Counted from the first letter of the stretch, positions 21,973 to 35,449 are shown. The stretch is 57,346 nucleotides of DNA from Candidatus Woesearchaeota archaeon (GCA_964601675.1 CAZROF010000001.1:1-57346), one strand, 5' to 3'. Notes: generated by a model not told the origin, from the sequence alone. Numbers and translations: made by a program.

Positions 21973-22968
21973 CTAAGTAACAACATTAGAACTAGAAAAA
22001 GCCGTCTTTTCCCTAGCTTGAGGGGCGACATTATTCGAAGGCAACTTAGGCAACTCCTGATGAATAGGAGCAGTAGGTATAACGGAAACCGAGCCATCAT
22101 CACGCTTAACAGCAGGGACTAAAGCAACGGGAGCAACTAAGTCCTCTCTCTTAGGAATCACCTCAACCGGACTAGAAGTTTCCTTCTTTTGGGAAATAAC
22201 CTTAGGCACCATACTAACATCAACCTTCTGAACAGCAGCCCTTTCCACCTGCGACACAACCCTCCCCTCCTTATTAAAAACCTCAATACCACCGTCCCGA
22301 ATTATCATCCCAATAGCAGCCCTTTCATGTGCAGTTCTTCTCATTTTCGCAATCCTAATAGCCCTATCTCCAACGCCAGCAACTGGAGATTCATAAAAAA
22401 TACTAACAGAATCACTAAGGAATCGCAAGATATCAGTTTTTGTCCATTCGCTTCCACTTGTCCAATTCATCTCACCCTCTAAGCTTTCATCCGCAAAAAT
22501 CGTCGTAACTTTAAGTCTCTTCATTAAACTCGACAACTCAAAAATAGTTTGCCTAATTTTTCCCTTATCACTTAAACTCAAGGCCAAAACCGAAACTGGA
22601 TCGAAGCAAATTCGTCTCACATTATTTTTACTAATCATCCGAGTTAATTCCTTCTTTAATTCTTCAATCGAAGTCTGCGGAGCAAACCTCATAAATTTAA
22701 TCTTTCCCTCCTCACTGAGCTTCGAAAAATCCCATCCATGCGCCATAGAGTCATTAAGTGTATCAAGAATATCTGGCTCAAAACTACAATACAATCCATT
22801 CTCGCCAAATTTCGCAATTCCATTCCAAAGGAACTGTAAAAGAAAAGTACTCTTTCCAGAGCCAGGACCTCCAACAATTAGGTTATCACTATTTCTAACG
22901 AAACCTCCGTCACACAACTTATCAAATCCAACAATGCCAGTAGGACATCTGTCAATCACCCCGTTCAT
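21973..22968 (-). CDS. KaiC/RecA-superfamily ATPase with Pro/Val-rich C-terminal tail
   Basis: TGIVGFDKL..GG, Walker A GGPGSGKST and Walker B-like RICFDPVS. About 90 aa of low-complexity tail. Confidence 0.75.
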   Translation of the reverse strand: MNGVIDRCPTGIVGFDKLCDGGFVRNSDNLIVGGPGSGKSTFLLQFLWNGIAKFGENGLYCSFEPDILDTLNDSMAHGWDFSKLSEEGKIKFMRFAPQTSIEELKKELTRMISKNNVRRICFDPVSVLALSLSDKGKIRQTIFELSSLMKRLKVTTIFADESLEGEMNWTSGSEWTKTDILRFLSDSVSIFYESPVAGVGDRAIRIAKMRRTAHERAAIGMIIRDGGIEVFNKEGRVVSQVERAAVQKVDVSMVPKVISQKKETSSPVEVIPKREDLVAPVALVPAVKRDDGSVSVIPTAPIHQELPKLPSNNVAPQAREKTAFSSSNVVT

Positions 22969-22989
22969 GGGATAGTGAAATAAAAGAAT

Positions 22990-23000
22990 TATTTAAATGT
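22990..23000 (-). promoter_or_regulatory. TATA-like box (aaacatttaaataa on minus strand) for the KaiC-like gene
   Basis: It lies about 25-30 nt upstream of the ATG at 22968 and immediately outside the transposon end. Confidence 0.4.
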
Positions 23001-23003
23001 TTA

Positions 23004-23012
23004 CTAATACGT
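23004..23012 (+). repeat. left target-site duplication ctaatacgt
   Basis: An identical 9-mer in direct orientation sits at 35441-35449. Each copy abuts one terminal inverted repeat. Confidence 0.75.
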
Positions 23013-23029
23013 GGCTTTGTTTAATAAGT
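23013..23029 (+). repeat. left terminal inverted repeat ggctttgtttaataagt
   Basis: Exact reverse complement of 35424-35440. Confidence 0.8.
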
Positions 23030-23048
23030 CCAAATAACAACTTACTTT

Positions 23049-24308
23049 TTAAACAGAAATTTCTCTTGTATGTTCAAGACTAAATTCTGCTTTTACCCCC
23101 AACTCTTTTATTTCTTGAATAACAACACAAACATTATGACATAAAACTTTAATCAACATCTCATTAAATTGTGCTATTTGTTTTTTGCTTCTTATATCTC
23201 CTCTAAATTTTGTTTTAATCATATGAAATACTGTTTCTGAATTAGACCTTTTATGATAATGTTCTAAAAAATCCTCATGTTTATACATAAAATAATGATA
23301 CATCTTTTTCCAAACAGAAGATTTACCTCTTTTACCTGTAACATTTTTCTTAAATGGAATAAAAGGAACTCCGCCAACTTCTTTAATAACTTTAAGGTTG
23401 GCTTTACTACTATATGCTTTATCCCCCGAAACTTCTGAAATTCCAAAATTCTCGGCTGTTTTATGAACTAATCCCTTTAATTGTGGGCTATCATTTTCTT
23501 GCCCTTCTGTTATCTTAACTCCTGTAATAATATTAGTTTTAACTCCACTTATCAAATGGGCTTTAATCCAAACCTTGTATTTCCTTTCCTTTCCCCACTT
23601 ATAATCAAACCAACGAGCATATCTTGAAGTAGAAAAACCTGAACTATCAATTGCAAAATCCTTTTCTATTTCTTTAAGAGGTAGGGAACTAATTGTTATT
23701 AGATTTTCTAAAATTGTTTTAACTTCTCCCTTATTCATAAAATTAGATAATGAAGAATAACAAGGAACCTTATCAACTAATCCGTAATCGTGTGCAATTT
23801 TCATATCAGACATAAATCTTCTTAATGAAAATCCTGTATAAACCTTCATTACAGAACCAAAAAGCATATCTGAAAAAGGTAAAGTTGGCCGACCAAATTT
23901 ATATTCAGGTTGTTCAATATTCTCGCATAAATCTTTTAACAACTTCATAAAAATTAACTTCTCATTTGTTTGAAATTTATTATAAGCAGACCATTTTTGA
24001 GTATAAGAAACTTTTACTCCATTTGTTTCTATGATTTTCCCTTCTTCGTCTATTTGTCTTTTAATATAAAATTCTACTGCGTAAATATGCTTACATTTAG
24101 ATTTTCTTAAAGTGCAATCAGGACAATTGCATTTTGGTTCGTGTCCGTTAAAACTTACTTTATATGCTTTAAAAGATGTTTGAGAGCCAACTATCCAATA
24201 ATTATTATGCTTTCTTAATCGTCCAGATTGAAAGATTAACTTACCTCTCTCTTCTCGGTTAAGTTTTCTTATATCTGTTGTTTGTGTTTGATTATTTACT
24301 TTTATCAT
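23049..24308 (-). CDS. DDE transposase, IS4/IS5 superfamily, with N-terminal SWIM zinc finger
   Basis: SWIM finger CNCPDCTLRKSKCKHIYA. DDE candidates are DSSGF, GDKAY and SNSETVF. There is an exact Y-x2-R-x3-E-x6-K signature (YHKRSNSETVFHMIK). Confidence 0.85.
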   Translation of the reverse strand: MIKVNNQTQTTDIRKLNREERGKLIFQSGRLRKHNNYWIVGSQTSFKAYKVSFNGHEPKCNCPDCTLRKSKCKHIYAVEFYIKRQIDEEGKIIETNGVKVSYTQKWSAYNKFQTNEKLIFMKLLKDLCENIEQPEYKFGRPTLPFSDMLFGSVMKVYTGFSLRRFMSDMKIAHDYGLVDKVPCYSSLSNFMNKGEVKTILENLITISSLPLKEIEKDFAIDSSGFSTSRYARWFDYKWGKERKYKVWIKAHLISGVKTNIITGVKITEGQENDSPQLKGLVHKTAENFGISEVSGDKAYSSKANLKVIKEVGGVPFIPFKKNVTGKRGKSSVWKKMYHYFMYKHEDFLEHYHKRSNSETVFHMIKTKFRGDIRSKKQIAQFNEMLIKVLCHNVCVVIQEIKELGVKAEFSLEHTREISV

Positions 24309-24489
24309 CTTACTTATATAGGTAATAACTACTATATAAATCTTTCTATTTCTTACTGATATAAGTAAATAGTATATAATTACCGACGATAAAATAATAC
24401 TTATATTCTTGAGTTTTATATAATTAACTAATATTAACTATGTTTTTATAAACAATAATTATATAAAGTAGTTAAACTTAAATAAATTT

Positions 24490-24675
24490 ATGAGTAACAA
24501 AGAAAAGTATAAAATTAAAAAAGTGGTAAATGCTTTTAAGTGTTTAAGGTGCGGACATGAATGGATACCCCGCGTGGAATTATCACAACTTGAAGGTGAA
24601 TTAAAAGAAAAGCCCAGAATCTGCCCAAAATGTAAGTCTGCTTATTGGGATTTAGAACCTAAAACCAAAAAGTAA
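24490..24675 (+). CDS. small zinc-ribbon protein (61 aa)
   Basis: CLRCGHEW ... CPKCKS (two CxxC knuckles) with basic termini. Confidence 0.5.
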   Translation: MSNKEKYKIKKVVNAFKCLRCGHEWIPRVELSQLEGELKEKPRICPKCKSAYWDLEPKTKK

Positions 24676-24717
24676 TGGGGTTTGAAAGCCGACTCTTCAT
24701 TTTGGAAAAATAGAAAA

Positions 24718-25280
24718 TTATTTATTTAACTCAATCAACCTAATTGTACTTTCTCTCACCACTCTTGCTACTTCCCTAAACTCATCATAAGTTAATACCC
24801 ATTGATTACTTACATCAGGATATTCTTCACCCATTAGATTAATAATTTTTGGATGATAATCTGAACCGTTATATATATCTCTAACCCTCCTTAAATTTGA
24901 ATCTCCAATACAAGCGATTATTCCTCCCCCATCAACTGCATGTGTTTGAGTGGGATAATCTACAAATTCTAAATCTAATTCAGCAAGATATCTGTCCCTA
25001 TTCGCTCTCTCCTTTATGAGAAATTTTTCTAATATTCCTCTAGGATTTGTTTCAAAATTATCCACCTCCTTTGTAGACAAAATATCTCGTTCATAGGCAT
25101 CACTGAAAAATTGTTTTAAGTATTTAGCTAGTTGATTTCCATCAGATCTTGTTATCACATCAACCATAGTTCCAGTTGAAAATAGCGTATACTCTTGATT
25201 TTTGCTAATCTGGCCACAGCTAACGCTACTGGGCTTTTCCCATTATTTGCTGTACATACAAATTCTATCCTTTTTACCAT
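24718..25280 (-). pseudogene. LMW protein-tyrosine-phosphatase/ArsC-like gene, frameshifted; P-loop CX5K instead of CX5R
   Basis: The 41-aa ORF at 25155-25280 reads MVKRIEFVCTANNGKSPVALAVARLAK.. (LMW-PTP P-loop V-C-x-x-N-x-x-[R>K]-S-P). The 149-aa ORF (24718-25167) continues the fold in another frame (ITRSDG.., IIACIGDSN.., PDVSNQW..YDEFREV). A 1-nt indel in the A5 run (T5 on the plus strand, 25199-25203) would fuse them. Confidence 0.5.
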
Positions 25281-25357
25281 ATTACTACTAAATAGTTACA
25301 AGATATAAATCTTTGCATTTTACAAATATTAAAAAACTTGATTTTCGTATTGAGATT

Positions 25358-25984
25358 ATGATAAAAGTAAAAATTTGTGGAATACATTCTAGCAATGAAG
25401 CAAAAAAGGCTATTGAATATGGGGCCGATTTTTTAGGATTACTTATAGATATTCCTGAAACTAATTTAAGTTTAAATCCAATCGAAGCTAAAAAAATTAT
25501 ATCTTATAATCATAAAGGAAAATTTATTATACTTACTATAGAAATGAAGTCCAGAAAATTATTATCTTTGGTTAATGAGATTTCGCCTTGGGGGATTCAA
25601 CTTTTAAGACCAACAAGTGAAAATGTAAATTTTCTTTCAAAAAATAGTGAAGTAAAGATAATACCTGTGGTTCACATAACTAACAAAAGAGATATTAATC
25701 AAATTGAATCATATAATAATGCCGATTATATCCTATTAGATTCTAGGTTTGGCAATCATCTTGGAGGAACGGGTAAAGTTCATGATTGGAACATAAGTAA
25801 AAAAATTGTAAAAAATACCAATATACCCATAATATTGGCAGGAGGTTTGAATAAATCAAATATTAAAGAAGCTATTAGTAAAGTTAAACCATATGCCGTA
25901 GATGTTGAATCTTCCCTTAGGAACAACATAGGTTTTAGAGACTTCTTAAAAATTAAAAAGTTCATAGATAAAGCAAAAAATTAA
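25358..25984 (+). CDS. trpF: phosphoribosylanthranilate isomerase (TrpF)-family protein
   Basis: MIKVKICGI..GADFLGLL..IQLL..ILLDS..GGTGKVHDW..ILAGGLNKSNIKEAI..PYAVDVESS..FIDKAK tracks T. maritima TrpF almost motif for motif. The catalytic Cys (KICG) and Asp (LLD) are present. The start is taken at the ATG 25358. Confidence 0.8.
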   Translation: MIKVKICGIHSSNEAKKAIEYGADFLGLLIDIPETNLSLNPIEAKKIISYNHKGKFIILTIEMKSRKLLSLVNEISPWGIQLLRPTSENVNFLSKNSEVKIIPVVHITNKRDINQIESYNNADYILLDSRFGNHLGGTGKVHDWNISKKIVKNTNIPIILAGGLNKSNIKEAISKVKPYAVDVESSLRNNIGFRDFLKIKKFIDKAKN

Positions 25985-27069
25985 TCAAAATCTTTTGAAA
26001 AAGGGCCAAACACCTTATTCTTCAATAACCAGCTCCAATGTACTCTTGGAGATTCTTTTATCTTCAATTTTCCAAATGGAATTTCAAAAACTTGAGGCAT
26101 ATTATATTCATTAACTTTTTCTTCAATAGGATCATAGTATAATATTTTTGGAATACAAATATTTCTTTTATCTTTATTACTCGCAAGAATTAACGGACAT
26201 TGTATTTCTTGTCCTCTAACATAGAGGAATTTTTTCCATTTTTCTACATCATTAAAAGGAATCATAGAAGGAATAAAAACAATATCTATATCTTTATTAG
26301 CCAAATAATGGGAAATTCTCGGATTCAATAAATCATAACAGATTATAACTGCCACTTTTATTCCTTTATGCTCAATTATTTTTGGGAATCTTCCTTTTTT
26401 CATTATTTTTTTTTCGTTAGCAAAGGCTGTAGACTTACTTATTTGAATTGGACTTTTTTTCATAAAATATGTTTCAGGTCCCTGATTACCATATTTGCCA
26501 AATATTGTCCCTTCTGGAAATCCTTTTGGATTAAAGTTCATTCTTGAGAATGGATATGATTCCGGAAATAAGTATAAATCGGATTTGTTTTTTGAAATAA
26601 TTTTTTTTGAAATATTAACATCTTCCCTAGAATTGATGACATTTCCACAAAAGGCCGAAACTTTTAGAATCTCTAAACCTCTAAATTTTTCTTCAATAGT
26701 TGCATTAATTTCTCCGGAAACAATATATTTTCTACTATTGAAAGTCTTTTCAATCAGTTTTCGTTTGGTTTTTTTGTTTTTGAAAATTTTTCCAAAAGGG
26801 ATGTGAGGATTTTTACTTGTCCAATTCAGAACTAATTCATTTTTCATAGTCTTATTCTTTGCAAAACATAAAACATACGGGCCCAGTATAAATGCTATTT
26901 CTCTATAGAAATAATTTCTAAACTCTTCTTGTTTTAATACAACAAATTTTGAACTTTTGAATAGATTAAATATTTCATAAGTGGTTGATAAGTTCACTTT
27001 CTTTAAAAGTCTTGAATACCATTTTTCATTTTTCATTTGAGTTAATTTCAACAAGACCATCTTTACCAT
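25981..27069 (-). CDS. carbon-nitrogen hydrolase (nitrilase superfamily)-like protein with about 180-aa N-terminal extension
   Basis: Candidate E-K-C triad: DLYLFPESY (Glu), YFMKKSP (Lys) and VAVIICYDL (Cys). An alternative start at 27036 would reduce the overlap with the upstream gene. Confidence 0.55.
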   Translation of the reverse strand: MVKMVLLKLTQMKNEKWYSRLLKKVNLSTTYEIFNLFKSSKFVVLKQEEFRNYFYREIAFILGPYVLCFAKNKTMKNELVLNWTSKNPHIPFGKIFKNKKTKRKLIEKTFNSRKYIVSGEINATIEEKFRGLEILKVSAFCGNVINSREDVNISKKIISKNKSDLYLFPESYPFSRMNFNPKGFPEGTIFGKYGNQGPETYFMKKSPIQISKSTAFANEKKIMKKGRFPKIIEHKGIKVAVIICYDLLNPRISHYLANKDIDIVFIPSMIPFNDVEKWKKFLYVRGQEIQCPLILASNKDKRNICIPKILYYDPIEEKVNEYNMPQVFEIPFGKLKIKESPRVHWSWLLKNKVFGPFSKDFD

Positions 27070-27346
27070 TAATCTTGACCTTCATACCATCAGAAACTGT
27101 ATCTAATAACTCTTTTATTCCAACAATACATGGTTTTTTAATCTCTCTACAAAATATTGAAGCATGAGATAACAATCCTCCGTATTCTGTAAGAACTGCT
27201 CCAACATTCAACATTTCAGCACTCATTTCGGGAGATGTGGATGTAGCTACAAGAATATCATTTTCATTAAATTCTTTCTCTTTTGAAAAAATCTTGATAG
27301 TTCCCTCAAATTCCCCTTCAGAAGCAGGAATGCCTTTGAGTATCAT
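27026..27346 (-). CDS. stand-alone PEP-utilising-enzyme mobile (phosphohistidine swivel) domain protein
   Basis: GIPASEG...ILVATSTSPE...AVLTEYGGLLSHASIFCREIKKPCIVG is the classic swivel domain with the phospho-His (SH). Confidence 0.8.
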   Translation of the reverse strand: MILKGIPASEGEFEGTIKIFSKEKEFNENDILVATSTSPEMSAEMLNVGAVLTEYGGLLSHASIFCREIKKPCIVGIKELLDTVSDGMKVKINGKDGLVEINSNEK

Positions 27347-28242
27347 TTATGGCCTCCTAAAATATGATATATTCCTTGACTAAGTTTGTCTTCTGGAATC
27401 TCGCATGTTTTCATATAAAATTTAACTATTTCTTCGGGGAAAGGTGTTTTAAGAAATCCTTTTTGTGCTTCTGGAACACTAAAATCAAAAGCATTAAAAA
27501 TTTGGTTAATAACATATTTTCTATTAAATTCTTTAGAATTTTTTAATTCATTAATTTTATTTTTAACTTCTTCAAATAAAATATCCAATTCTCCTCCAAT
27601 TGTTTCCCCCCCCTCAATAAATACCTGGGACTGATCAAGATTTTCTGGTTCAATAATATGTTCAAAAAAATCGATTTTCATATCTTGTTTTGGAGATATA
27701 ATAATTATTTTTTTGTTTAAAGCTAATCTATGATAGTAACGATAAACGCTGTTGTCATCAAAAAATAATTGTACTCCATTAGATCTAAAAATAGGATTAA
27801 CCATTTCTGTTAAGTTATCGAGTAAAAATACTAATTTTTTTACATCTACTTTTTTTGAATTAGCATCCAAATCCCATTCAGGCATCCATGATTTGGAAGT
27901 ATAATCATCAAGATAATTTTCTTTTTTAAATAGCATAATTTTCGATAAGATTCCCATTAAAAGATCTTTATGATTCTCTTCTCCCATCATTTCCTTTGCT
28001 TTTTCATTTAAAAAATAAAAAACTAATCCTGAAAGTTTTCCAGGCATTAATCCTTTTTCAAATAAGCTTTTAGGATCATTTTTCCAACCCATTAAATTTT
28101 TACCCACTTCTGGAATTAAAAATGGACCCGAATAATACATAGCTTCAACTGAGTTTATTGGCCATTGTGATAAAACATCTGATTCATGTTGTACCTTTGC
28201 TACATCCCTAGAGATGTTTTTCAATATTCTATTTATTTCCAT
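27343..28242 (-). CDS. hypothetical protein; possible substrate-binding middle module of a split PEP-synthase-like kinase
   Basis: No motif recognised. Its stop overlaps the start of the swivel-domain gene (ATGA). Confidence 0.35.
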   Translation of the reverse strand: MEINRILKNISRDVAKVQHESDVLSQWPINSVEAMYYSGPFLIPEVGKNLMGWKNDPKSLFEKGLMPGKLSGLVFYFLNEKAKEMMGEENHKDLLMGILSKIMLFKKENYLDDYTSKSWMPEWDLDANSKKVDVKKLVFLLDNLTEMVNPIFRSNGVQLFFDDNSVYRYYHRLALNKKIIIISPKQDMKIDFFEHIIEPENLDQSQVFIEGGETIGGELDILFEEVKNKINELKNSKEFNRKYVINQIFNAFDFSVPEAQKGFLKTPFPEEIVKFYMKTCEIPEDKLSQGIYHILGGHK

Positions 28243-28258
28243 AAAATGAAAAACCGAG

Positions 28259-28942
28259 TTATATTTTTAAAGTTTTTGATTTGTTAATTTTTCCAGCTAG
28301 AATCCAATGAGCACTTTTTACATTATATCTACCAATTGGTGCAATAATTTTCTCTCCAATCAATAAATTATCTAATCTAAAAAAACTTTCAGCTTCTTTT
28401 TTACCCCAATATTCTATCACAATATCTCTCTTTCCGGGTTTATCTTGTAAATAAGTATTTTTTCTCACTTCTTTTCCTACCCTATATCTAGAATCATTTT
28501 TTGATCTAAGGGAAAATATAATCCATGCACCATTTTTTGATACTCTTATAATTTCTTCAATAGTTTTTTCTTGATCTTTTTGGGAGAGGTAATGAAAAAT
28601 ACCCCAAAGAATAACAACATCAAATGAATTATCATTATGGGGTATATTGGTAGAACTAGCCAACTTTATTTCTGAATTAACATTCCACTTTTTTAAGAAC
28701 TTTTTAGATGTTGATACTGCCTAGTTTGAACTATCGATTCCAAAGGTAATACATCCCTCATAATCAAACATCAATAAATGCCTTCCAGCCCCACACCCAA
28801 TATCAAGAACCTTTTTGCCTTTAAGATTTCCTAGATACTTTTCAGAAAAAGTAAATATTTCTTCAGATGGCCAGTATATGTATTTTGAACTTTTCTTATA
28901 GAATTTATTCCAGATTTCTTTATTGTTTTCTGATTTCTTCAT
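28259..28942 (-). pseudogene. class I SAM-dependent methyltransferase interrupted by one in-frame TAG (28721-28723)
   Basis: The N-terminal ORF ends ..VLDIGCGAGRHLL..GIDSSN-TAG. The same frame continues with no other stop: AVSTSKKFLKKWNVNSEIKLASS..NSFDVVILWGIFHYL (post-I/II motifs). Confidence 0.6.
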
Positions 28943-28993
28943 AAGGAAATTAGGTTTAGAAAGTTTTTAAAATATACTTTCCTCTTAATTATT

Positions 28994-30085
28994 ATGGAAA
29001 TAATAAAAAAAATGAACAATTTAGTTGAGGGAGATAAGATTAAATCTATTGAAGATTGGAAAAAGATAAGCATTAGTACTAAAAAAGATCTATCAGAATC
29101 GATAGTTCCTAAAAATTTCCTTGAATTAAGGATTACAAGTGGATCTACAGGAAAACCTCTTTATGTTTTTTATTCTAATAAAGCCGTAGAAGGGTTTATT
29201 AATCGAACAAGAAAATCAATAAAATTATCTGGAGTATCAAATAAAGATATTGTTTTGAATCTTTTTGCGTATGGAAATTATGTTCCTGGAAGTATGTATG
29301 AAAGGGCTTGCTTATTGGAAGGGATATCAATATTACCCCTCGGGGCCCCAAATACTTATCCAAAAGAAAAAATTATGGAAGTTATTTTAAAGGTGAAACC
29401 AACAGTGTGGTTTTCGGTGCCAAGCTATGCTTTAGGTTTGTTAGAAGTTCTTAATAAAATTAATCCGAAAATTATGCCAAAAAAAATACTTGTTGCAGGA
29501 GAAATGTTATTAAATTCATATATATTAAGATTTAAAGAATTAGGAGTAGAAGTCATTAATCATTTTGGTTTAACAGAATGTCCTGCCATTGGAGTTTCTA
29601 AAAAAGGAGATCCAAAATTGATAAAAGTAATTAATGAGGGGATATATGTGGAGGCAGTAGAGATAAATAAAAATTTAGAATTAGTAATAACTGATTTAAA
29701 TAATAGTTCTACAAAAATAGTGCGTTATAATACAAAAGATGTCTTAGAAAAGATTAAATATACTAGTAATGGTTCAATAAGCGAATTTTCTATTACTGGG
29801 AGAGATGATGATTTAATAAAATTACAAGGGATGCTTACATCAAAAATAAAAATAGAAGATGCATTATCAAAATATACTAATGAGTTTATTGTTAATTTTA
29901 GAACAAAAGAGAATAGCGATTATGTTGAATTTATTCTTCCTTCTGAATTTAAGAATAAAGAAGATGATATCATGAAAGAACTCTCATTTATTTTTGCTAA
30001 GAAAGAATTTATCTTTCAAAATAAAATTGAAGTCCCTAAAACAAGTTCTCACAAATTAAGACATATTGTCGACCTAAGAAAATGA
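28994..30085 (+). CDS. adenylate-forming enzyme, PaaK / coenzyme F390 synthetase / CapK-like
   Basis: ITSGSTGKP, NHFGLTEC, YNTKDV, GRDDDLIKLQG and a C-terminal ..SSHKLRH (ANL core motifs in a short, roughly 360-aa format). Confidence 0.7.
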   Translation: MEIIKKMNNLVEGDKIKSIEDWKKISISTKKDLSESIVPKNFLELRITSGSTGKPLYVFYSNKAVEGFINRTRKSIKLSGVSNKDIVLNLFAYGNYVPGSMYERACLLEGISILPLGAPNTYPKEKIMEVILKVKPTVWFSVPSYALGLLEVLNKINPKIMPKKILVAGEMLLNSYILRFKELGVEVINHFGLTECPAIGVSKKGDPKLIKVINEGIYVEAVEINKNLELVITDLNNSSTKIVRYNTKDVLEKIKYTSNGSISEFSITGRDDDLIKLQGMLTSKIKIEDALSKYTNEFIVNFRTKENSDYVEFILPSEFKNKEDDIMKELSFIFAKKEFIFQNKIEVPKTSSHKLRHIVDLRK

Positions 30086-31641
30086 GAGACAAAATTCTCA
30101 TTATTGGTGCATCTAGTAAGGTTGCTCAATCTATTTCAGAAATGTTAACTAATTATGGCTTTGAATTGATTGGCACTTATAATAAAAAATATCCTCAAAA
30201 TCCTGAGTGTTATAAAAAATTAAAAAAAATTAATTTTGTAATTAATGAAGATATAAATAAACTTGATAAATTAAAAAATATTTCAGACATTATATTTACA
30301 ATAGGAAAAGCAGAATTTTTAAATGAAGAAGCTTCCAAAATTAATTATAAGGCATTGGAAAATTTAGTTAGTTATTTGAAAAAGAAAAAGAAAAATATTA
30401 GAATAATATTTTGTTCGTCATCAGCAGTATATGGAAATAACAAATCCAAAATTATCTTCGAAAATTCGAACAAAATTCCTACTAGTTATTATGGAAATTA
30501 TAAATTAAAAGCAGAAAATATTTTAAAAAAGTCATATATAGATTTTGTTATAGTTAGATTTCCAATTATATTTGGATTATATTTTAAAAAAAAATTCAAT
30601 AGATTTATCGAAGCAATAAAAGATGATAAAGCTACAATGTTTGGTGATGGGAGTAATAATTTTTCTTTTATTCATCAAAATGATCTATCAAATTTTATTA
30701 TGAAAATTATTGAAAATATAGAAATTAAAAATGAAGATTTTAATATTGCTTCTGGATTTACATCACAAAAAGATTATCTAAATCTGGTTGTAAATATATT
30801 TAATAAAAAAATAAAAAAATCTGCGACTTTAAAAGAATTATTCAGAATTGCTCAAAAACAGCAGAAAGGATATAACAAATCAAATAAGAAACCTTCCCTT
30901 TTAAAAGAAGACGTAATAAGTTTATCAAGAGATCGTATATATAGTATTGATAAAGCAAAAAAATATGTTTCTTGGAAACCAAAATATACAATTAATAAAT
31001 CAGTTGGTGATACCTTCAAAGAAAATATGTTGTTATCAAGATGGGATGGGATTAAAATTTTAAAATATTTATATCCAGACAAATTGCTACCAGTAAAAAT
31101 ATACAGGAATCCATCAGAATTTAATCCAAATCAGTTTATGAAAAAGAAAGAAGAGATTTGGAGCATAACTATAAGGGATGAAGAAGGAGATATAATTAAT
31201 ACCGACCACTTATTTTCAAGAGACTCTAATAACATAAAAAAATTTATGATTAACAATAAGAAGCCAAATAAAGTATATATTGTTAGATTAAGTCCTCCAA
31301 GAGATGATATTTTATACTATGGCTCTTTTTTGATTGATAAAAATAATTTTAAGAATAAAGTGATTATTACAATATCAAAGAATCCTGAAGAACTATTTGT
31401 TATGAGAGAAGAAGGGAAATCACTTAAACTTCTTCCAAGAGATTATGTTCCAGACTACAATCTCATCTATGAAGGGGGAAAAGTTGAGGGAGAATTTCCA
31501 AAAAAGTATACAAAAATTCTTGAGAAAGATATTGAAAAATTATCTCATCTATTGAAAAAAACAAAAAGAGAAGATTTAACAATACCTGTTCTTTTTATAA
31601 TAAGTAAAAAAGGTGTTCAGTATATAAGTTTAGGACTATGA
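30082..31641 (+). CDS. NAD-dependent epimerase/dehydratase (extended SDR) fused to an about 200-aa uncharacterised C-terminal domain
   Basis: ILIIGASSKVAQS (Rossmann), SSSAVYG and YGNYK (YxxxK). I recognise no motif in the C-terminal half. Confidence 0.6.
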   Translation: MRDKILIIGASSKVAQSISEMLTNYGFELIGTYNKKYPQNPECYKKLKKINFVINEDINKLDKLKNISDIIFTIGKAEFLNEEASKINYKALENLVSYLKKKKKNIRIIFCSSSAVYGNNKSKIIFENSNKIPTSYYGNYKLKAENILKKSYIDFVIVRFPIIFGLYFKKKFNRFIEAIKDDKATMFGDGSNNFSFIHQNDLSNFIMKIIENIEIKNEDFNIASGFTSQKDYLNLVVNIFNKKIKKSATLKELFRIAQKQQKGYNKSNKKPSLLKEDVISLSRDRIYSIDKAKKYVSWKPKYTINKSVGDTFKENMLLSRWDGIKILKYLYPDKLLPVKIYRNPSEFNPNQFMKKKEEIWSITIRDEEGDIINTDHLFSRDSNNIKKFMINNKKPNKVYIVRLSPPRDDILYYGSFLIDKNNFKNKVIITISKNPEELFVMREEGKSLKLLPRDYVPDYNLIYEGGKVEGEFPKKYTKILEKDIEKLSHLLKKTKREDLTIPVLFIISKKGVQYISLGL

Positions 31642-32762
31642 TAAAACAAATTAAAAACAAATTAAAAAAGGTAATAAAAAGAGAAAAAGAAACCTCCTTA
31701 CTTAGAATTGGAATTCCTCAACCTCCGGCTCCACAAAATTATTTTCAAAAAGAAATAAAACAATTATTAAAATTAAACCCAAATAATATAGGCACTACTA
31801 CGAGAATGAAGTTTTCTCAAGATAGTTGTAGAGAACTTGAAAATAAGGCGATAAAAAAGATCTCTAAGTGGTTCCATGGTTCTAATCTGGATGGGTACAT
31901 TAATAGTGGTTCTACTGAGGGGAATATTATGGCATTATGGATAGGAAGAGAATATCTTAAGAAGAAGGGCAAACCCCTAATTATTTCTCATAATGAGAGT
32001 CATTATTCTTTAGATAAAGCGGCAAGACTGCTTGATTTAAAAATAATAAAAACAAAAGCTAAATTTTGGAACAAACCCCTTGATAAAAATCAGCTTAAGG
32101 AAGCAACAAAAAATATAAAATCTCCTTTAATTATAGTTGGAACCTTAGGCCATACTTCAACTGGAACAATAGATAATATAGAATCAATAACAGAATTTAT
32201 CAAAGAATATAAAAAACCGTGTTTTTTGCATCTTGATGCTGCTGTTGGAGGATTTTTTATCCCATTTTTAAGTCAAAATAAATATTCAGACTTTGGAAAT
32301 TCTTTTGTTAAATCATTAACCTTTGATTATCATAAATATGGTTTCCTTTATTACTCTTCAGGAATTTTTTTGTGTAGAAATGGTCTGCAAGATAATATTG
32401 GTAGTGACACTGAATATATTAAAATTTTTGACGACACCCTTATAGGTTCAAGATCTGGAATATTGCCTGCAATTATTTGGGCAAATACAGAATATTTAGC
32501 CAAAAAGGGATTTAAGAAAAGAGCAATGAAAATTATCTCAAATAAAAATAAATTTATTAAAAGATTAAATGAAAAAAATATCAAATATATTGAAACCCCT
32601 TCTATGCCAATGGTTTGTATAATTTTAAAGAAAAGGCTCCCGAAATACATGGAAATAAAATTTAGAATCCACTCCCTAAAAAGAAAAGAAGGTTATACTT
32701 ATACAATTTATTTTTATCCAAAATATCTTAAAAGTTACGAAGAATTATTAAAAATTATATAA
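31638..32762 (+). CDS. PLP-dependent group II decarboxylase (MfnA-like Tyr/Asp decarboxylase family)
   Basis: SGSTEGNIMAL, HLDAAVGGFFIPF and SLTFDYHKYGF (PLP-Lys in HK). Confidence 0.7.
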   Translation: MIKQIKNKLKKVIKREKETSLLRIGIPQPPAPQNYFQKEIKQLLKLNPNNIGTTTRMKFSQDSCRELENKAIKKISKWFHGSNLDGYINSGSTEGNIMALWIGREYLKKKGKPLIISHNESHYSLDKAARLLDLKIIKTKAKFWNKPLDKNQLKEATKNIKSPLIIVGTLGHTSTGTIDNIESITEFIKEYKKPCFLHLDAAVGGFFIPFLSQNKYSDFGNSFVKSLTFDYHKYGFLYYSSGIFLCRNGLQDNIGSDTEYIKIFDDTLIGSRSGILPAIIWANTEYLAKKGFKKRAMKIISNKNKFIKRLNEKNIKYIETPSMPMVCIILKKRLPKYMEIKFRIHSLKRKEGYTYTIYFYPKYLKSYEELLKII

Positions 32763-33827
32763 GATTGAATAACCTTTATTATTTGGTTTAGCCGTAAATG
32801 TAATCATCTTTTTATCTTTTAAAATTTTTTCTATCTTCATTGGATCTTTTGTTAGAATATATATTGCAGGTCCACAAGATGAAACAGAGATTATAGGGGT
32901 TATCTCATTCCTATATTTCATTAGCGATTTTACTAGAGAATATAATCCTTTCCATGTTCTTGAATCTATTACTAAACTTCCAGTATTAAATCTATAATAT
33001 TGCAATATGTCCCCAATAGATTTCATGTTTTTATTCATTATCGAAGGAATAAGTTCATGTAAAACCTTCCAAGCAATCTCTTTTGAGAAATCTTTACTTG
33101 ATTTTAACATTTTTGGAAATTGAGCTTTTTCGATTGCCATTAAACATTGAGCATCACATTTTTTATACATCTTGGGTATCCCAAAAACAAATGTATAATC
33201 TTCAGGAAATTTTTCTTTGAAAATTATATTTGATTCTCCTACAATTATCTGCATCCCCCCACCATATAGGGCTACAGAAGGAGAACCACCATTGCATTGG
33301 ACATGAATTAACCTTTCGTCATCTGATTCAATTTCTTCCCCATGATTTTGTGCAATAAACAAAGTTAATTGTCTTGGGTTTATTGGCTTTCCATATGCTT
33401 CATTTATTGCTATACAAACGGCACTTATTAACGAAGAGGAAGATCCTAGACCAGCGTGGGGGTAATCATATACATTATTTGCTTCAATTAAAAGCGAATC
33501 TTTTATTTTTAGAGCATTTTTCATCATTAATGCTGCATGTTTTACTATTGATTTTCTTTTTGTTTTTCTAGATAATGTAACAGATTTTTCTTTATTTTTT
33601 ATGATTTCTATTTTAGCATAAGTGTTCACATTAACTGAAAATGCAAGTTCACCCGCATTATAAACAAATTTTTTCTTTGGTTTCGTTAGGGTTTTTAAAT
33701 CAAAGCACATTGTATTCAATCGTGCTGGAACAATGACCTTTATTTTTTTATGTCTAATAACAGGAATATTTATTTTCCCTTTAATTGGGTTAAATATTTT
33801 TCCTGCTTTAAATATCTCTAATCTCAT
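32748..33827 (-). CDS. GHMP-kinase-superfamily protein of the archaeal COG1907 / beta-RFAP-synthase-like type
   Basis: The GHMP motif is PHAGLGSSSSLISAV. The N-terminus IVPARLNTMCFDL resembles the psRLHf.liDl start of the beta-RFAP-synthase group rather than the PGK..L.GEH start of true kinases. Confidence 0.55.
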   Translation of the reverse strand: MRLEIFKAGKIFNPIKGKINIPVIRHKKIKVIVPARLNTMCFDLKTLTKPKKKFVYNAGELAFSVNVNTYAKIEIIKNKEKSVTLSRKTKRKSIVKHAALMMKNALKIKDSLLIEANNVYDYPHAGLGSSSSLISAVCIAINEAYGKPINPRQLTLFIAQNHGEEIESDDERLIHVQCNGGSPSVALYGGGMQIIVGESNIIFKEKFPEDYTFVFGIPKMYKKCDAQCLMAIEKAQFPKMLKSSKDFSKEIAWKVLHELIPSIMNKNMKSIGDILQYYRFNTGSLVIDSRTWKGLYSLVKSLMKYRNEITPIISVSSCGPAIYILTKDPMKIEKILKDKKMITFTAKPNNKGYSILYNF

Positions 33828-33857
33828 AACAATGATAACACAAACAGATTTAAAAAG

Positions 33858-34802
33858 TTAATCCACTAAAGTTGTAATTGGTCTACTCTGAAGAATATAA
33901 AATTTATCCTTCCTTTTTGCCCATTCAATATCTACAGGGAATTTATAATGCTCTTCAATCATTTTTACTAATTTGCCCAATATTACAATTTCTTTTTTTG
34001 TCAAAACTTGATTTTCTCCTTTTTTCTTTAATTGCTTCCATTTATTTTCTCCCTTCTTATTTTTAAATAATCCCTTTACTTTATTATTGATGTTTATATC
34101 TAAGATTCTCCAGTCAGTCTTATCTAAAATATAACTATCTGGAGTGATCTCTCCAGAAACAATCGCCTCTCCCAATCCAAAACATGCTTCAATAACTAAT
34201 TGGTTTTTATCTTTTGTGATTGGATGGACAGAAAAAGCAACTCCAGATTCACTGCTATCTATCATTTTTTGAATAACTACTGCTACGGATATTTTTTCTT
34301 CTTTTAATTTTTTTTCAAGACGATATATTAATGCTCTTGGAGTGAACAGCGAGGCCCAACATTTTTTAATATTCATTATTAGGTTTTCTTTTGAAGTGTT
34401 AAGATAAGTATTTAACTGTCCTGCCCATGCTGCATTAGCACCATCTTCTGAAGTCGCCGAGCTCCTAACAGCAACATATTCTGATTTTAATTTACTATGA
34501 GACTTTATAATTTCATCTTTAATCTTTTTAGGAATATTCTTAGAAATAATTGCAAAATTTATTCTTTCTGAAGCCTTATTTATGCTATTAATCTCTTTTA
34601 GATTTATAGAATCTAATTCCGAGTCAATCTCTATTGATACATCGGTTTCTTTAATAAATTCTTCAAATGCATTTGAGAGTATAACAAATCCTCCAGGTAA
34701 TTCTATATTTGAATTAATTAACTCTCCTAATGAAGCACCCTTGCCCCCTGCTATTTCAACATCGTTTTTATTAATCGAATTTAAATTTCTCACATATCTC
34801 AT
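33858..34802 (-). CDS. stand-alone PPDK_N (PEP/pyruvate-binding ATP-grasp) domain protein
   Basis: GGKGASLGEL, VAVRSSATSEDGANAAWAGQ.NTYLN and VDIEWA..KFYILQSRPIT match the PEP synthase / PPDK N-terminal nucleotide-binding domain. Confidence 0.8.
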   Translation of the reverse strand: MRYVRNLNSINKNDVEIAGGKGASLGELINSNIELPGGFVILSNAFEEFIKETDVSIEIDSELDSINLKEINSINKASERINFAIISKNIPKKIKDEIIKSHSKLKSEYVAVRSSATSEDGANAAWAGQLNTYLNTSKENLIMNIKKCWASLFTPRALIYRLEKKLKEEKISVAVVIQKMIDSSESGVAFSVHPITKDKNQLVIEACFGLGEAIVSGEITPDSYILDKTDWRILDININNKVKGLFKNKKGENKWKQLKKKGENQVLTKKEIVILGKLVKMIEEHYKFPVDIEWAKRKDKFYILQSRPITTLVD

Positions 34803-34883
34803 GTTTTTAATAACAAATATAACATTATAAATTTATTTAATTATAAAAGAAAATCTTTTAAGGCTAAAAAGTTATTTATTAAT

Positions 34884-35363
34884 ATGAAATTTATAGTAGA
34901 TTTTAAGGGAAGGATTTCAGATAATGAATGGCATGATAACACAAACTTTAAAAATTTGGATAATGTAACACAAGTTTATGCATTTATATTTAATAAACAA
35001 GGGAAAGTTTGTTTGATTAAATATAAGGGTAGGTGGGGAATTCCAGGAGGGACACCTGAAAAAGAAGATAAATCTTTTGAAGATACTCTCAAAAGGGAAG
35101 TACAAGAAGAGGCAGATTTAAAAATAAAAAATATAAAAAGAGTTGGTTATATAAAAGTCATACCAAGGGATGGATCAAAGATTCATTATTTATTAAGATA
35201 TACGGCTTTTGTAGATAAAATTAATAATCAAACCGAAGATCCTGCAATCGGGGAGATTTTAGAGAGAAAATTTATTGATCCAAAGGAAATTTGTAAATAT
35301 ATTGGTTGGGGCAACTGTGAATTTCAATTGAATAAAGCTATTAAGGTTTATAATAACTTCTAA
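34884..35363 (+). CDS. NUDIX hydrolase
   Basis: Nudix box GGTPEKEDKSFEDTLKREVQEEADL (Gx5Ex7REUxEExGU). Confidence 0.85.
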   Translation: MKFIVDFKGRISDNEWHDNTNFKNLDNVTQVYAFIFNKQGKVCLIKYKGRWGIPGGTPEKEDKSFEDTLKREVQEEADLKIKNIKRVGYIKVIPRDGSKIHYLLRYTAFVDKINNQTEDPAIGEILERKFIDPKEICKYIGWGNCEFQLNKAIKVYNNF

Positions 35364-35423
35364 GATTCCTTTCTTCATTTTTAGAAGATATCTTAAGAAG
35401 GAGGGACTATTTAAACAACCACT

Positions 35424-35440
35424 ACTTATTAAACAAAGCC
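35424..35440 (+). repeat. right terminal inverted repeat acttattaaacaaagcc
   Basis: Exact reverse complement of 23013-23029. Confidence 0.8.
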
Positions 35441-35449
35441 CTAATACGT
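35441..35449 (+). repeat. right target-site duplication ctaatacgt
   Basis: Identical direct copy of 23004-23012. Confidence 0.75.

Follow-up and report, generated by a model that had tools for sequence, protein, structure and literature searches.

The 57,346-nt stretch of Candidatus Woesearchaeota archaeon DNA analyzed here (GCA_964601675.1 CAZROF010000001.1:1-57346; hereafter 'the window') contains, at 23013-35440, what is very probably a unit transposon—an insertion sequence (IS) with passengers—mobilized by one DDE transposase from the IS903 group of the IS5 family. Between its terminal repeats the unit measures 12,428 bp and comprises one transposase gene and ~11 kb of passenger genes, 15 open reading frames (ORFs) in all (14 genes, one split by a stop codon). 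An earlier, sequence-only reading of the window had proposed that this whole segment is the mobile unit, and that view is upheld by the collinear unit found at other sites, by the uninterrupted gene order of relatives, by the habits of a wider family, and by base composition. The IS903 group and passenger-carrying insertion sequences are both known already, and the element represents no new category.

The footprint of the insertion is perfect. The terminal repeats, GGCTTTGTTTAATAAGT at the transposase-stop end and ACTTATTAAACAAAGCC at the cargo end, are exact reverse complements (17/17), and identical 9-bp target-site duplications flank them (Table 1); all of the coordinates and sequences first reported for these features were reproduced. 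The sequence-only reading had cautioned that the 17-mer plus 9-mer might prove to be a common motif. Within the window the 17-mer occurs just twice, at the two ends, even when up to 3 mismatches are allowed, and the two copies form the sole perfect 17-bp inverted pair spaced 20 kb or less anywhere in the window. Taken alone, the 17-bp inverted repeat is weak evidence for an element; among 100 shuffled AT-rich windows, 27 hold at least one perfect 17-bp inverted pair. We estimate the added chance of an exact 9/9 flanking duplication at ~1e-5, and because this duplication is accompanied by an adjoining transposase stop codon, and the arrangement recurs family-wide, chance is untenable as an explanation. 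Domain searches of the element's ORFs found no integrase, second transposase, Cas1 or PolB. No tRNA genes and no Rfam families were found in the window, and the absence of tRNA genes there excludes tRNA-targeted integration.

The unit has moved as a whole. Four sites in four genomes carry the transposase together with its cargo, at 100%, 96%, 90% and 78% identity and with differing flanks, and at two of the four both ends and the duplication can be seen. The 90% copy, in Pacearchaeota CG1_02_32_132/UBA92, is 12,439 bp long, collinear with the unit in the window, and 90.1% identical to it with only 23 gap columns. It lies beside an AlaRS locus, bounded by identical 17-bp repeats and by its own perfect 9-bp duplication, TATTAGGCA. 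This copy was found by BLAST of the window against our loci (89.5% identity over 11.3 kb), and its other side was reached by way of a PPDK_N cluster member, OIO81628.1; the overlapping pieces, 100% identical over 10,443 bp, were merged. The 96% copy, on a Logan contig (96.2% identity over 5.2 kb), has a third distinct flank; the 78% copy, in a Woesearchaeota genome, has a fourth, and its cargo end retains the 17-bp repeat exactly. Comparison of the window with the 90% copy gives a dN/dS of 0.03-0.29 for every gene, those of the cargo and a small zinc-ribbon gene included, and 0.13 for the transposase. The passengers are maintained by selection, and they travel with the transposase.

The transposase gene lies where the sequence-only reading had placed it, its stop codon 19 nt from the left repeat (20 bp in that reading). 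Its catalytic residues are D221, D296 and E358, and the Y-2-R-3-E-6-K signature comprises Y351, R354, E358 and K365. In an alignment of 120 homologues and IS903, each of these shows at least 98% conservation and falls on the same residue in IS903, in agreement with the DDE candidates and the exact signature proposed at the outset. The protein aligns with essentially the whole of the IS903 transposase at 24% identity (E=3e-10) and has ~105 additional residues at its N-terminus. Among plasmid sequences it is closest to IS5 family elements such as ISVa2 (~25% identity), and its match to the NCBIfam model IS5_2 (NF033579), over positions 2-287 of 289, is a near miss, at 131.5 bits versus the curated cut-off of 140. 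The 18-bp repeat of IS903, GGCTTTGTTGAATAAATC, confirmed on annotated plasmid copies (K. pneumoniae plasmid), is identical to the element end, GGCTTTGTTTAATAAGTC, at 16/18 bases. Sequence search found no solved-structure relatives of the transposase.

End sequence, 9-bp duplication and catalytic core point the same way: the transposase belongs to the IS903 group of the IS5 family. The 'IS4/IS903-type' affiliation suggested initially thus holds for IS903, but IS4 is not the best fit. Members of the IS903 group are compact, ~1 kb elements with a single ORF. The element in the window shares with them a PF01609 DDE domain with Y-2-R-3-E-6-K, ~18-bp repeats that start with GGC, and a 9-bp duplication, but it differs in size, with 12,428 bp and 15 ORFs. 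Near-identical ends, in spite of only 24% transposase identity, represent a striking co-conservation of protein and DNA site across domains.

Relatives of the element are numerous. We scanned one genome per GTDB species and collected 80 loci encoding relatives of the transposase. The hosts are mainly methanogenic and DPANN archaea, along with some Acidobacteriota; among them are Pacearchaeota, Woesearchaeota, Parvarchaeum, Aenigmatarchaeota, Methanoregulaceae (chromosomes) and Blastocatellia/Pyrinomonadaceae. Bounded elements were sought among these loci by means of GGCTTT[GA] ends with mutually matching arms, and repeat positions 1-7 were thus selected for. This yielded 33 further bounded elements of 1.8-11.4 kb, 35 with the window and the 90% copy included. 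Every one (35/35) has a perfect 9-bp duplication; sizes run from 1.8 to 12.4 kb, and 32 exceed 3.5 kb. The smallest, L013, is 1.8 kb long and has 2 ORFs. Repeat positions 14-17 (AAGT), for which there was no selection, are 90-99% conserved across the 70 ends. HMMER was run exhaustively against 1.84 billion cluster representatives and returned 886 transposase clusters at E<=1e-30, and the family as a whole spans at least 886 clusters at 50% identity, in DPANN, methanogens, Acidobacteriota and Dehalococcoidia.

Each end of these elements carries more than its terminal repeat. If the core of the repeat is taken as positions 7-17, and a copy is counted at up to 2 mismatches, then at the transposase-stop end the element's own core recurs, inverted, at +32 in 34 of the 35 elements, and at the cargo (ATG-side) end it recurs, in direct orientation, at +25 in 31. 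When cores from dissimilar elements are swapped in as a control, the corresponding counts are 1.1/35 and 0.6/35. Cores differ between family members—GTTTAATAAGT and GCACGTAAAGT, for example—and some relatives have a third copy ~20 nt farther inward. Such conservation and co-variation suggest that the subterminal copies are functional protein-binding sites. Because the copies differ in orientation between the two ends, the ends are asymmetric, unlike those of IS903. One element of 11.4 kb (L015 594-11964) has its end types swapped, inverted at +32 on the ATG side and direct at +25 on the stop side, which implies that its transposase module may have become inverted inside the element.

The transposition module seems also to include a second, small gene. 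Upstream of the transposase gene and divergent from it, the element encodes a zinc-ribbon protein (C-x2-C ... C-P-x-C-K-S-P-Y-W), and tblastn matches to it lie upstream of the transposase at 21 related loci, distant members from Methanoregulaceae and Acidobacteriota among them. At five other loci (L008, L017, L021, L031, L053), the divergent upstream gene encodes instead a ribbon-helix-helix-like protein of 42-62 aa (…SLKIDxxLWKxxKxxCI…YxExLIxKxL). It would appear that two alternative small, putative DNA-binding partners occupy the same position upstream of the transposase, and that the zinc-ribbon protein is a putative DNA-binding regulator.

The site of insertion can be read from the flanking genes. 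Their products are an HD-domain protein, a KaiC-like ATPase, and a ThrRS of archaeal type that has the archaea-specific editing domain; they identify the host as an archaeon, and homologues place it among DPANN archaea of the Pacearchaeota/Woesearchaeota type. No close strain is available, the nearest KaiC-like proteins being 70-76% identical. Two contigs with a KaiC-like protein 71% identical have the order ThrRS(-), HD(+), 41 bp, KaiC-like(+), small ORF, class I tRNA synthetase(-). Nothing but this spacer separates the HD gene from the KaiC-like gene, and ThrRS-HD-41 bp-KaiC is evidently the ancestral, uninterrupted arrangement. Removing the element and one 9-mer from the window leaves a spacer of 57 bp, as the sequence-only reading had correctly computed, with a predicted empty-site junction of tttactaatacgt joined to agaaagaac. 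Some 20-30 nt upstream of the KaiC-like start codon lies a motif, AAACATTTAAATAAT (window 22969-23003), that is conserved in four relatives (L089, L090, L091 and L092; 70-76% protein identity) and is probably the BRE/TATA promoter of the KaiC-like gene. In the window the motif directly abuts the duplication, so the insertion split the HD-KaiC spacer but spared this promoter-like element. An independent Logan contig (19,261 bp, SRR6439371) is 100% identical to the window over 22106-34308 and spans the left junction. Exact-protein look-ups with the KaiC-like, HD, NUDIX and PPDK_N products found no record; start-codon calls probably differ.

Composition changes at the same boundaries. GC content is 0.278 inside the element versus 0.334 in the rest of the window, with the step coinciding with the repeats, and third-position GC content (GC3) is 0.192 inside versus 0.277 outside (Mann-Whitney p=1e-6). 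Third-position AT skew (AT3 skew) among host genes at 1-44 kb is ~+0.3 to +0.45 on the + strand and ~-0.2 to -0.5 on the - strand, whereas for the 12 element genes it is near 0 in both orientations. The 90% copy likewise has a GC content of 0.281 versus 0.35-0.36 for its host. Because the element lacks the strand-dependent codon imprint of its host, its composition supports an arrival that was recent relative to the time a host needs to imprint it; the sequence-only reading had drawn the same conclusion from the codon contrast, and GC, GC3 and AT3 skew all bear it out.

The host imprint has a pattern of its own. Regardless of gene direction, third positions on the + strand are rich in A and C throughout 1-44 kb. 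The skew weakens or reverses past ~44.5 kb (sign change at ~44-46 kb), and the lowest cumulative GC skew is found at ~48-49 kb. This switch may mark a replication origin or terminus; no Orc1/Cdc6 gene was found near 44-46 kb.

Several findings weigh against the interpretation of the segment as a unit transposon. No transposition event has been observed; we infer activity, including current activity. Just one copy is visible in the 57-kb window, and one cargo gene contains a premature stop, which may leave the cluster less than fully functional. The sequence-only reading had called for a search for the empty site. The uninterrupted HD-KaiC order of relatives answers to it, but the exact sequence has 0 matches in JGI metagenomes, either for this site (GTTTACTAATACGTAGAAAGAACT) or for the UBA92-type site (AACTACCTATTAGGCAATACTCAA), and the empty-site evidence consists of synteny in relatives whose KaiC-like protein is just 71% identical. 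Independent support for both junctions had been called for, too. The left one was found in the Logan assembly, where the match ends at 34308, short of the right one. For the proposed SWIM finger, C60, C62, C72 and H74 (CxCx9CxH) are at least 98% conserved in the 120 archaeal-family homologues, and PF04434 is listed for several close homologues in precomputed Pfam data. The match of PF04434 to residues 57-82 of the transposase itself falls just short, however, at 18.9 bits versus a gathering threshold of 19.6. Finally, the roles proposed for the subterminal repeats and the zinc ribbon are deduced solely from conservation and co-variation.

Conceivably the element, once it had arrived by transposition, became an immobile relic, or one that can be moved only by a transposase from elsewhere; in effect, a fixed genomic island. 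The repeats and the duplication are perfect, though, and the transposase is full-length, has all of its catalytic and zinc-binding residues intact, and is under purifying selection. Composition has not drifted toward that of the host, and the closest copy (96%) occupies another site, showing movement within the lineage. The single copy in the window, the one inactivated cargo gene, and the metagenomes that yielded neither excision product nor empty site speak for a relic, which in our judgment is unlikely, but not negligibly so.

Much less probable is a second alternative, that only a ~1.7-kb insertion sequence made up of the transposase and zinc-ribbon genes is mobile, and that the adjoining 10.7 kb on the right consists of ordinary host DNA, or of some unrelated island, ended by a chance or solo 17-mer. 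No inner repeat is present in the window with up to 3 mismatches to the 17-mer; the sequence-only reading had found none near 24.3-24.5 kb, either. The sole candidate, GGCTTTC at 24687-24693, lies where the zinc-ribbon gene has its 3' end; the 90% copy reads TGCTTTC there, and other relatives lack it. Compact versions do exist, as the 1.8-kb element L013 demonstrates, and perfect 17-bp pairs do arise by chance in 27% of shuffled windows, but here the 9-bp duplication brackets the 12.4-kb unit rather than the 1.7-kb core. The cargo, moreover, accompanies the transposase at three other sites (96%, 90%, 78%) with different flanks, which exclude orthologous positions in closely related genomes, low-GC3, skew-free composition fills all 12.4 kb and ends at the repeats, and HD and KaiC are adjacent in relatives. 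Least credible of all is an assembly or binning chimera, a mobile-element contig joined to a host contig at repeated sequence: the contig is indeed metagenome-assembled, and the GC content of the element does differ from that of its flanks, but such an accident would not create perfect inverted repeats bracketed by a perfect 9-bp direct repeat, an independent assembly (SRR6439371) matches at 100% identity over a 12.2-kb span that takes in the left junction, both flanks are neighbors in related genomes, and the same architecture of ends and duplication recurs in assemblies from many unrelated projects.

We return, then, to the unit transposon. By analogy with IS903, its transposition would be of the DDE cut-and-paste kind. 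The transposase would bind to the GGCTTTG...AAGT termini, and probably to the co-varying subterminal copies as well, excise the element at its outermost G, and join it to a target cut with a 9-bp stagger. Repair gave rise to the ctaatacgt duplication that is present today, and the landing spot was the short HD/KaiC-like spacer of a DPANN archaeon, where the duplication lies just upstream of motif AAACATTTAAATAAT. IS903 is also capable of low-frequency replicative transposition.

Table 1. Positions of the ends and genes of the element in the window
Feature	Position	Strand	Basis
Left 9-bp target-site duplication copy (ctaatacgt)	23004..23012	.	9/9 identity to 35441-35449
Terminal inverted repeat, transposase-stop end (GGCTTTGTTTAATAAGT)	23013..23029	+	sequence readout
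Inverted subterminal copy of repeat core (reverse complement CTGTTTAAAAAGT), overlaps transposase stop codon	23044..23056	-	putative second transposase-binding site
Transposase, 419 aa, DDE_Tnp_1 core and N-terminal SWIM zinc finger (candidate)	23049..24308	-	PF01609, 2.8e-23
61-aa zinc-ribbon protein (CxxC...CxxC), divergent from transposase	24490..24675	+	tblastn; dN/dS 0.03
149-aa protein, no family match	24718..25167	-	domain searches
Phosphoribosylanthranilate-isomerase-like (PRAI) protein	25313..25984	+	PF00697, 3e-24
Carbon-nitrogen hydrolase-like protein	25981..27069	-	PF00795
Stand-alone phosphoenolpyruvate (PEP)-utilising mobile (phosphohistidine swivel) domain	27026..27346	-	PF00391, 6.6e-21
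299-aa protein, no family or PDB match	27343..28242	-	domain and structure-database sequence searches
S-adenosylmethionine (SAM) methyltransferase, in-frame TAG at 28721-28723 (codon 74)	28259..28942	-	domain searches
PaaK-like adenylate-forming enzyme	28994..30085	+	domain searches
NAD-dependent epimerase/dehydratase with C-terminal extension	30082..31641	+	domain search
Pyridoxal phosphate (PLP)-dependent decarboxylase (MfnA / histidine-decarboxylase-like)	31638..32762	+	domain searches
GHMP-kinase fold, beta-RFAP-synthase-like protein	32748..33827	-	domain searches
Stand-alone PPDK_N (ATP-binding domain, PEP synthase type)	33858..34802	-	1.1e-92
NUDIX hydrolase	34884..35363	+	domain search
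Direct subterminal copy of repeat core (reverse complement TTGTTTAAATAGT), cargo end	35406..35418	-	putative second transposase-binding site
Terminal inverted repeat, cargo end (ACTTATTAAACAAAGCC)	35424..35440	-	sequence readout
Right 9-bp target-site duplication copy (ctaatacgt)	35441..35449	.	9/9 identity to left copy

The cargo consists of 12 genes, 11 uninterrupted frames and one interrupted methyltransferase, and looks like a cluster for the biosynthesis or modification of a small molecule. The PPDK_N domain, the 299-aa protein and the swivel domain together resemble a split PEP-synthase or rifampicin-phosphotransferase-type phosphotransfer system; to judge from the beta-RFAP-synthase-like and PRAI-like enzymes, the chemistry may involve a phosphoribosyl arylamine. 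The methyltransferase gene of the 90% copy (M082) has an independent in-frame stop, at codon 24, a Trp position, and that of the 78% copy is intact and encodes 224 aa (L095 15858-16532), a pattern that suggests repeated inactivation of this passenger, or relaxed selection upon it. We considered whether the cargo might be a known defence system, but PADLOC recognizes no such system in the cluster, giving only weak DndA/SspA-like matches, to the PLP enzyme. In a distant DPANN genome (L096 8583-10948), a PPDK_N protein 63% identical to that of the element adjoins a 459-aa PEP-utilizer protein, in an ordinary chromosomal setting without the remaining cargo genes; the split phosphotransfer pair would therefore predate its recruitment into the transposon cluster.

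Other elements of the family carry other things, mostly restriction-modification or other defence genes, or glycosyltransferases. Fusions of methylase and nuclease of the type IIG or type I-like kind are present in 10 elements. Elsewhere we find a type III restriction-modification pair, a C5 methylase, a D12 methylase with GmrSD, a PLD-helicase with an Eco57I-type enzyme and a PD-(D/E)XK nuclease, and HerA-NurA. One element (L008) has an eight-gene cluster; the two genes tested are both glycosyltransferases.

Elements of this family are also found next to one another. On one contig of Blastocatellia UBA11740, two (L055 6430-16776 and L060 6081-16483) lie head-to-tail, separated only by copies of the 9-mer (GAACCATAG / CTATGGTTC), with the end of a third just outside. 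Four other insertions (L035, L040, L061, L067) abut the GGCTTTG end of another element, which suggests either repeated insertion at hot-spots or targeting of resident ends. The 35 target sites (L004-L079, the window and M082) have weakly symmetric flanks, rich upstream of the duplication in A at -8/-7 and in T at -4/-3, and downstream of it in A at +3 and in T at +7/+8, reminiscent of a palindromic target preference.

How does this element compare with known systems? Its closest counterpart, enterobacterial IS903 (1057 bp), has the same kind of ends (16/18), a 9-bp duplication, an aligned DDE_Tnp_1 D, D, E and Y-2-R-3-E-6-K, and presumably the same cut-and-paste chemistry. The two differ in transposase sequence (24% identity), in the extra ~105-aa N-terminus with its candidate SWIM finger, in the second conserved small gene, putatively DNA-binding, and in the one or two extra co-varying subterminal sites per end, direct or inverted. 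IS903 is a 1.06-kb element of one ORF, whereas this family ranges from 1.8 to 12.4 kb with cargo and is hosted mainly by DPANN and methanogenic archaea and some Acidobacteriota. In overall design the element is more like bacterial transporter IS (tIS) elements and unit transposons: one transposase, one pair of repeats, unrelated passengers, a duplication around the outside, and the whole unit present at different sites. Those are described for bacteria, however; here the setting is archaeal, cargo is the rule (32/35 exceed 3.5 kb), and up to 14 ORFs (13 genes, one stop-split) are present besides the transposase.

Composite transposons of the Tn903 type also have similar ends, a 9-bp duplication, and resistance or other genes in between, but they hold two complete IS copies; this element has one transposase gene and two copies of the repeat, and so is not a composite. 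Casposons, too, are archaeal and cargo-carrying, with terminal inverted repeats and target-site duplications. They encode a Cas1 integrase and a family B polymerase, however, and produce longer duplications, and no Cas1 or PolB domain is present among the ORFs here. Tn7, Mu and Tn402-type elements have asymmetric ends, each with several copies of a transposase-binding sequence, as this element putatively does, but their transposases (TnsAB, MuA, TniA), ATPase partners and 5-bp duplications set them apart, and none of those proteins is present here. Aloposons, which integrate at tRNA sites, are unrelated (PMC8813620).

In a 2019 survey of archaeal integrated elements, passenger-carrying DNA transposons were undetected in archaea (PMC6563490), and a 2010 survey of mobile restriction-modification units included no archaeal case (PMC2853133). 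We found no description of this transposon family in the full-text literature, a search that did not extend to ISfinder, where a named relative is possible. On balance, and with modest confidence, we are inclined to regard these elements as a large, undescribed family of DDE cargo transposons, distinguished by IS903-like termini, asymmetric multi-site ends, a transposase with a putative SWIM finger, and a small zinc-ribbon or ribbon-helix-helix regulator. They would be the first clear class of archaeal transposon in which a single transposase carries passengers, and a major vehicle for defence, glycosylation and biosynthetic genes.

Gene acquisition is little understood in DPANN archaea, whose genomes are tiny and which rely on other cells; the element offers a concrete mechanism. 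In one step, an IS903-type transposase carries up to ~11 kb of passengers, in insertions that can be delimited to the base. If we are right, the family moves genes for defence (restriction-modification systems among them) and for glycosylation, as well as biosynthetic clusters, between DPANN archaea, their hosts and some bacteria, and would fill the archaeal passenger-transposon gap stated in the 2019 survey (PMC6563490). Compact (a pair of short ends, a transposase and perhaps a small cofactor) and tolerant of more than 10 kb of cargo, such elements might make a genetic tool for archaea. And because restriction-modification and defence genes dominate the cargo of the family, these elements probably shape virus-host and symbiont-host conflicts in uncultivated archaea.

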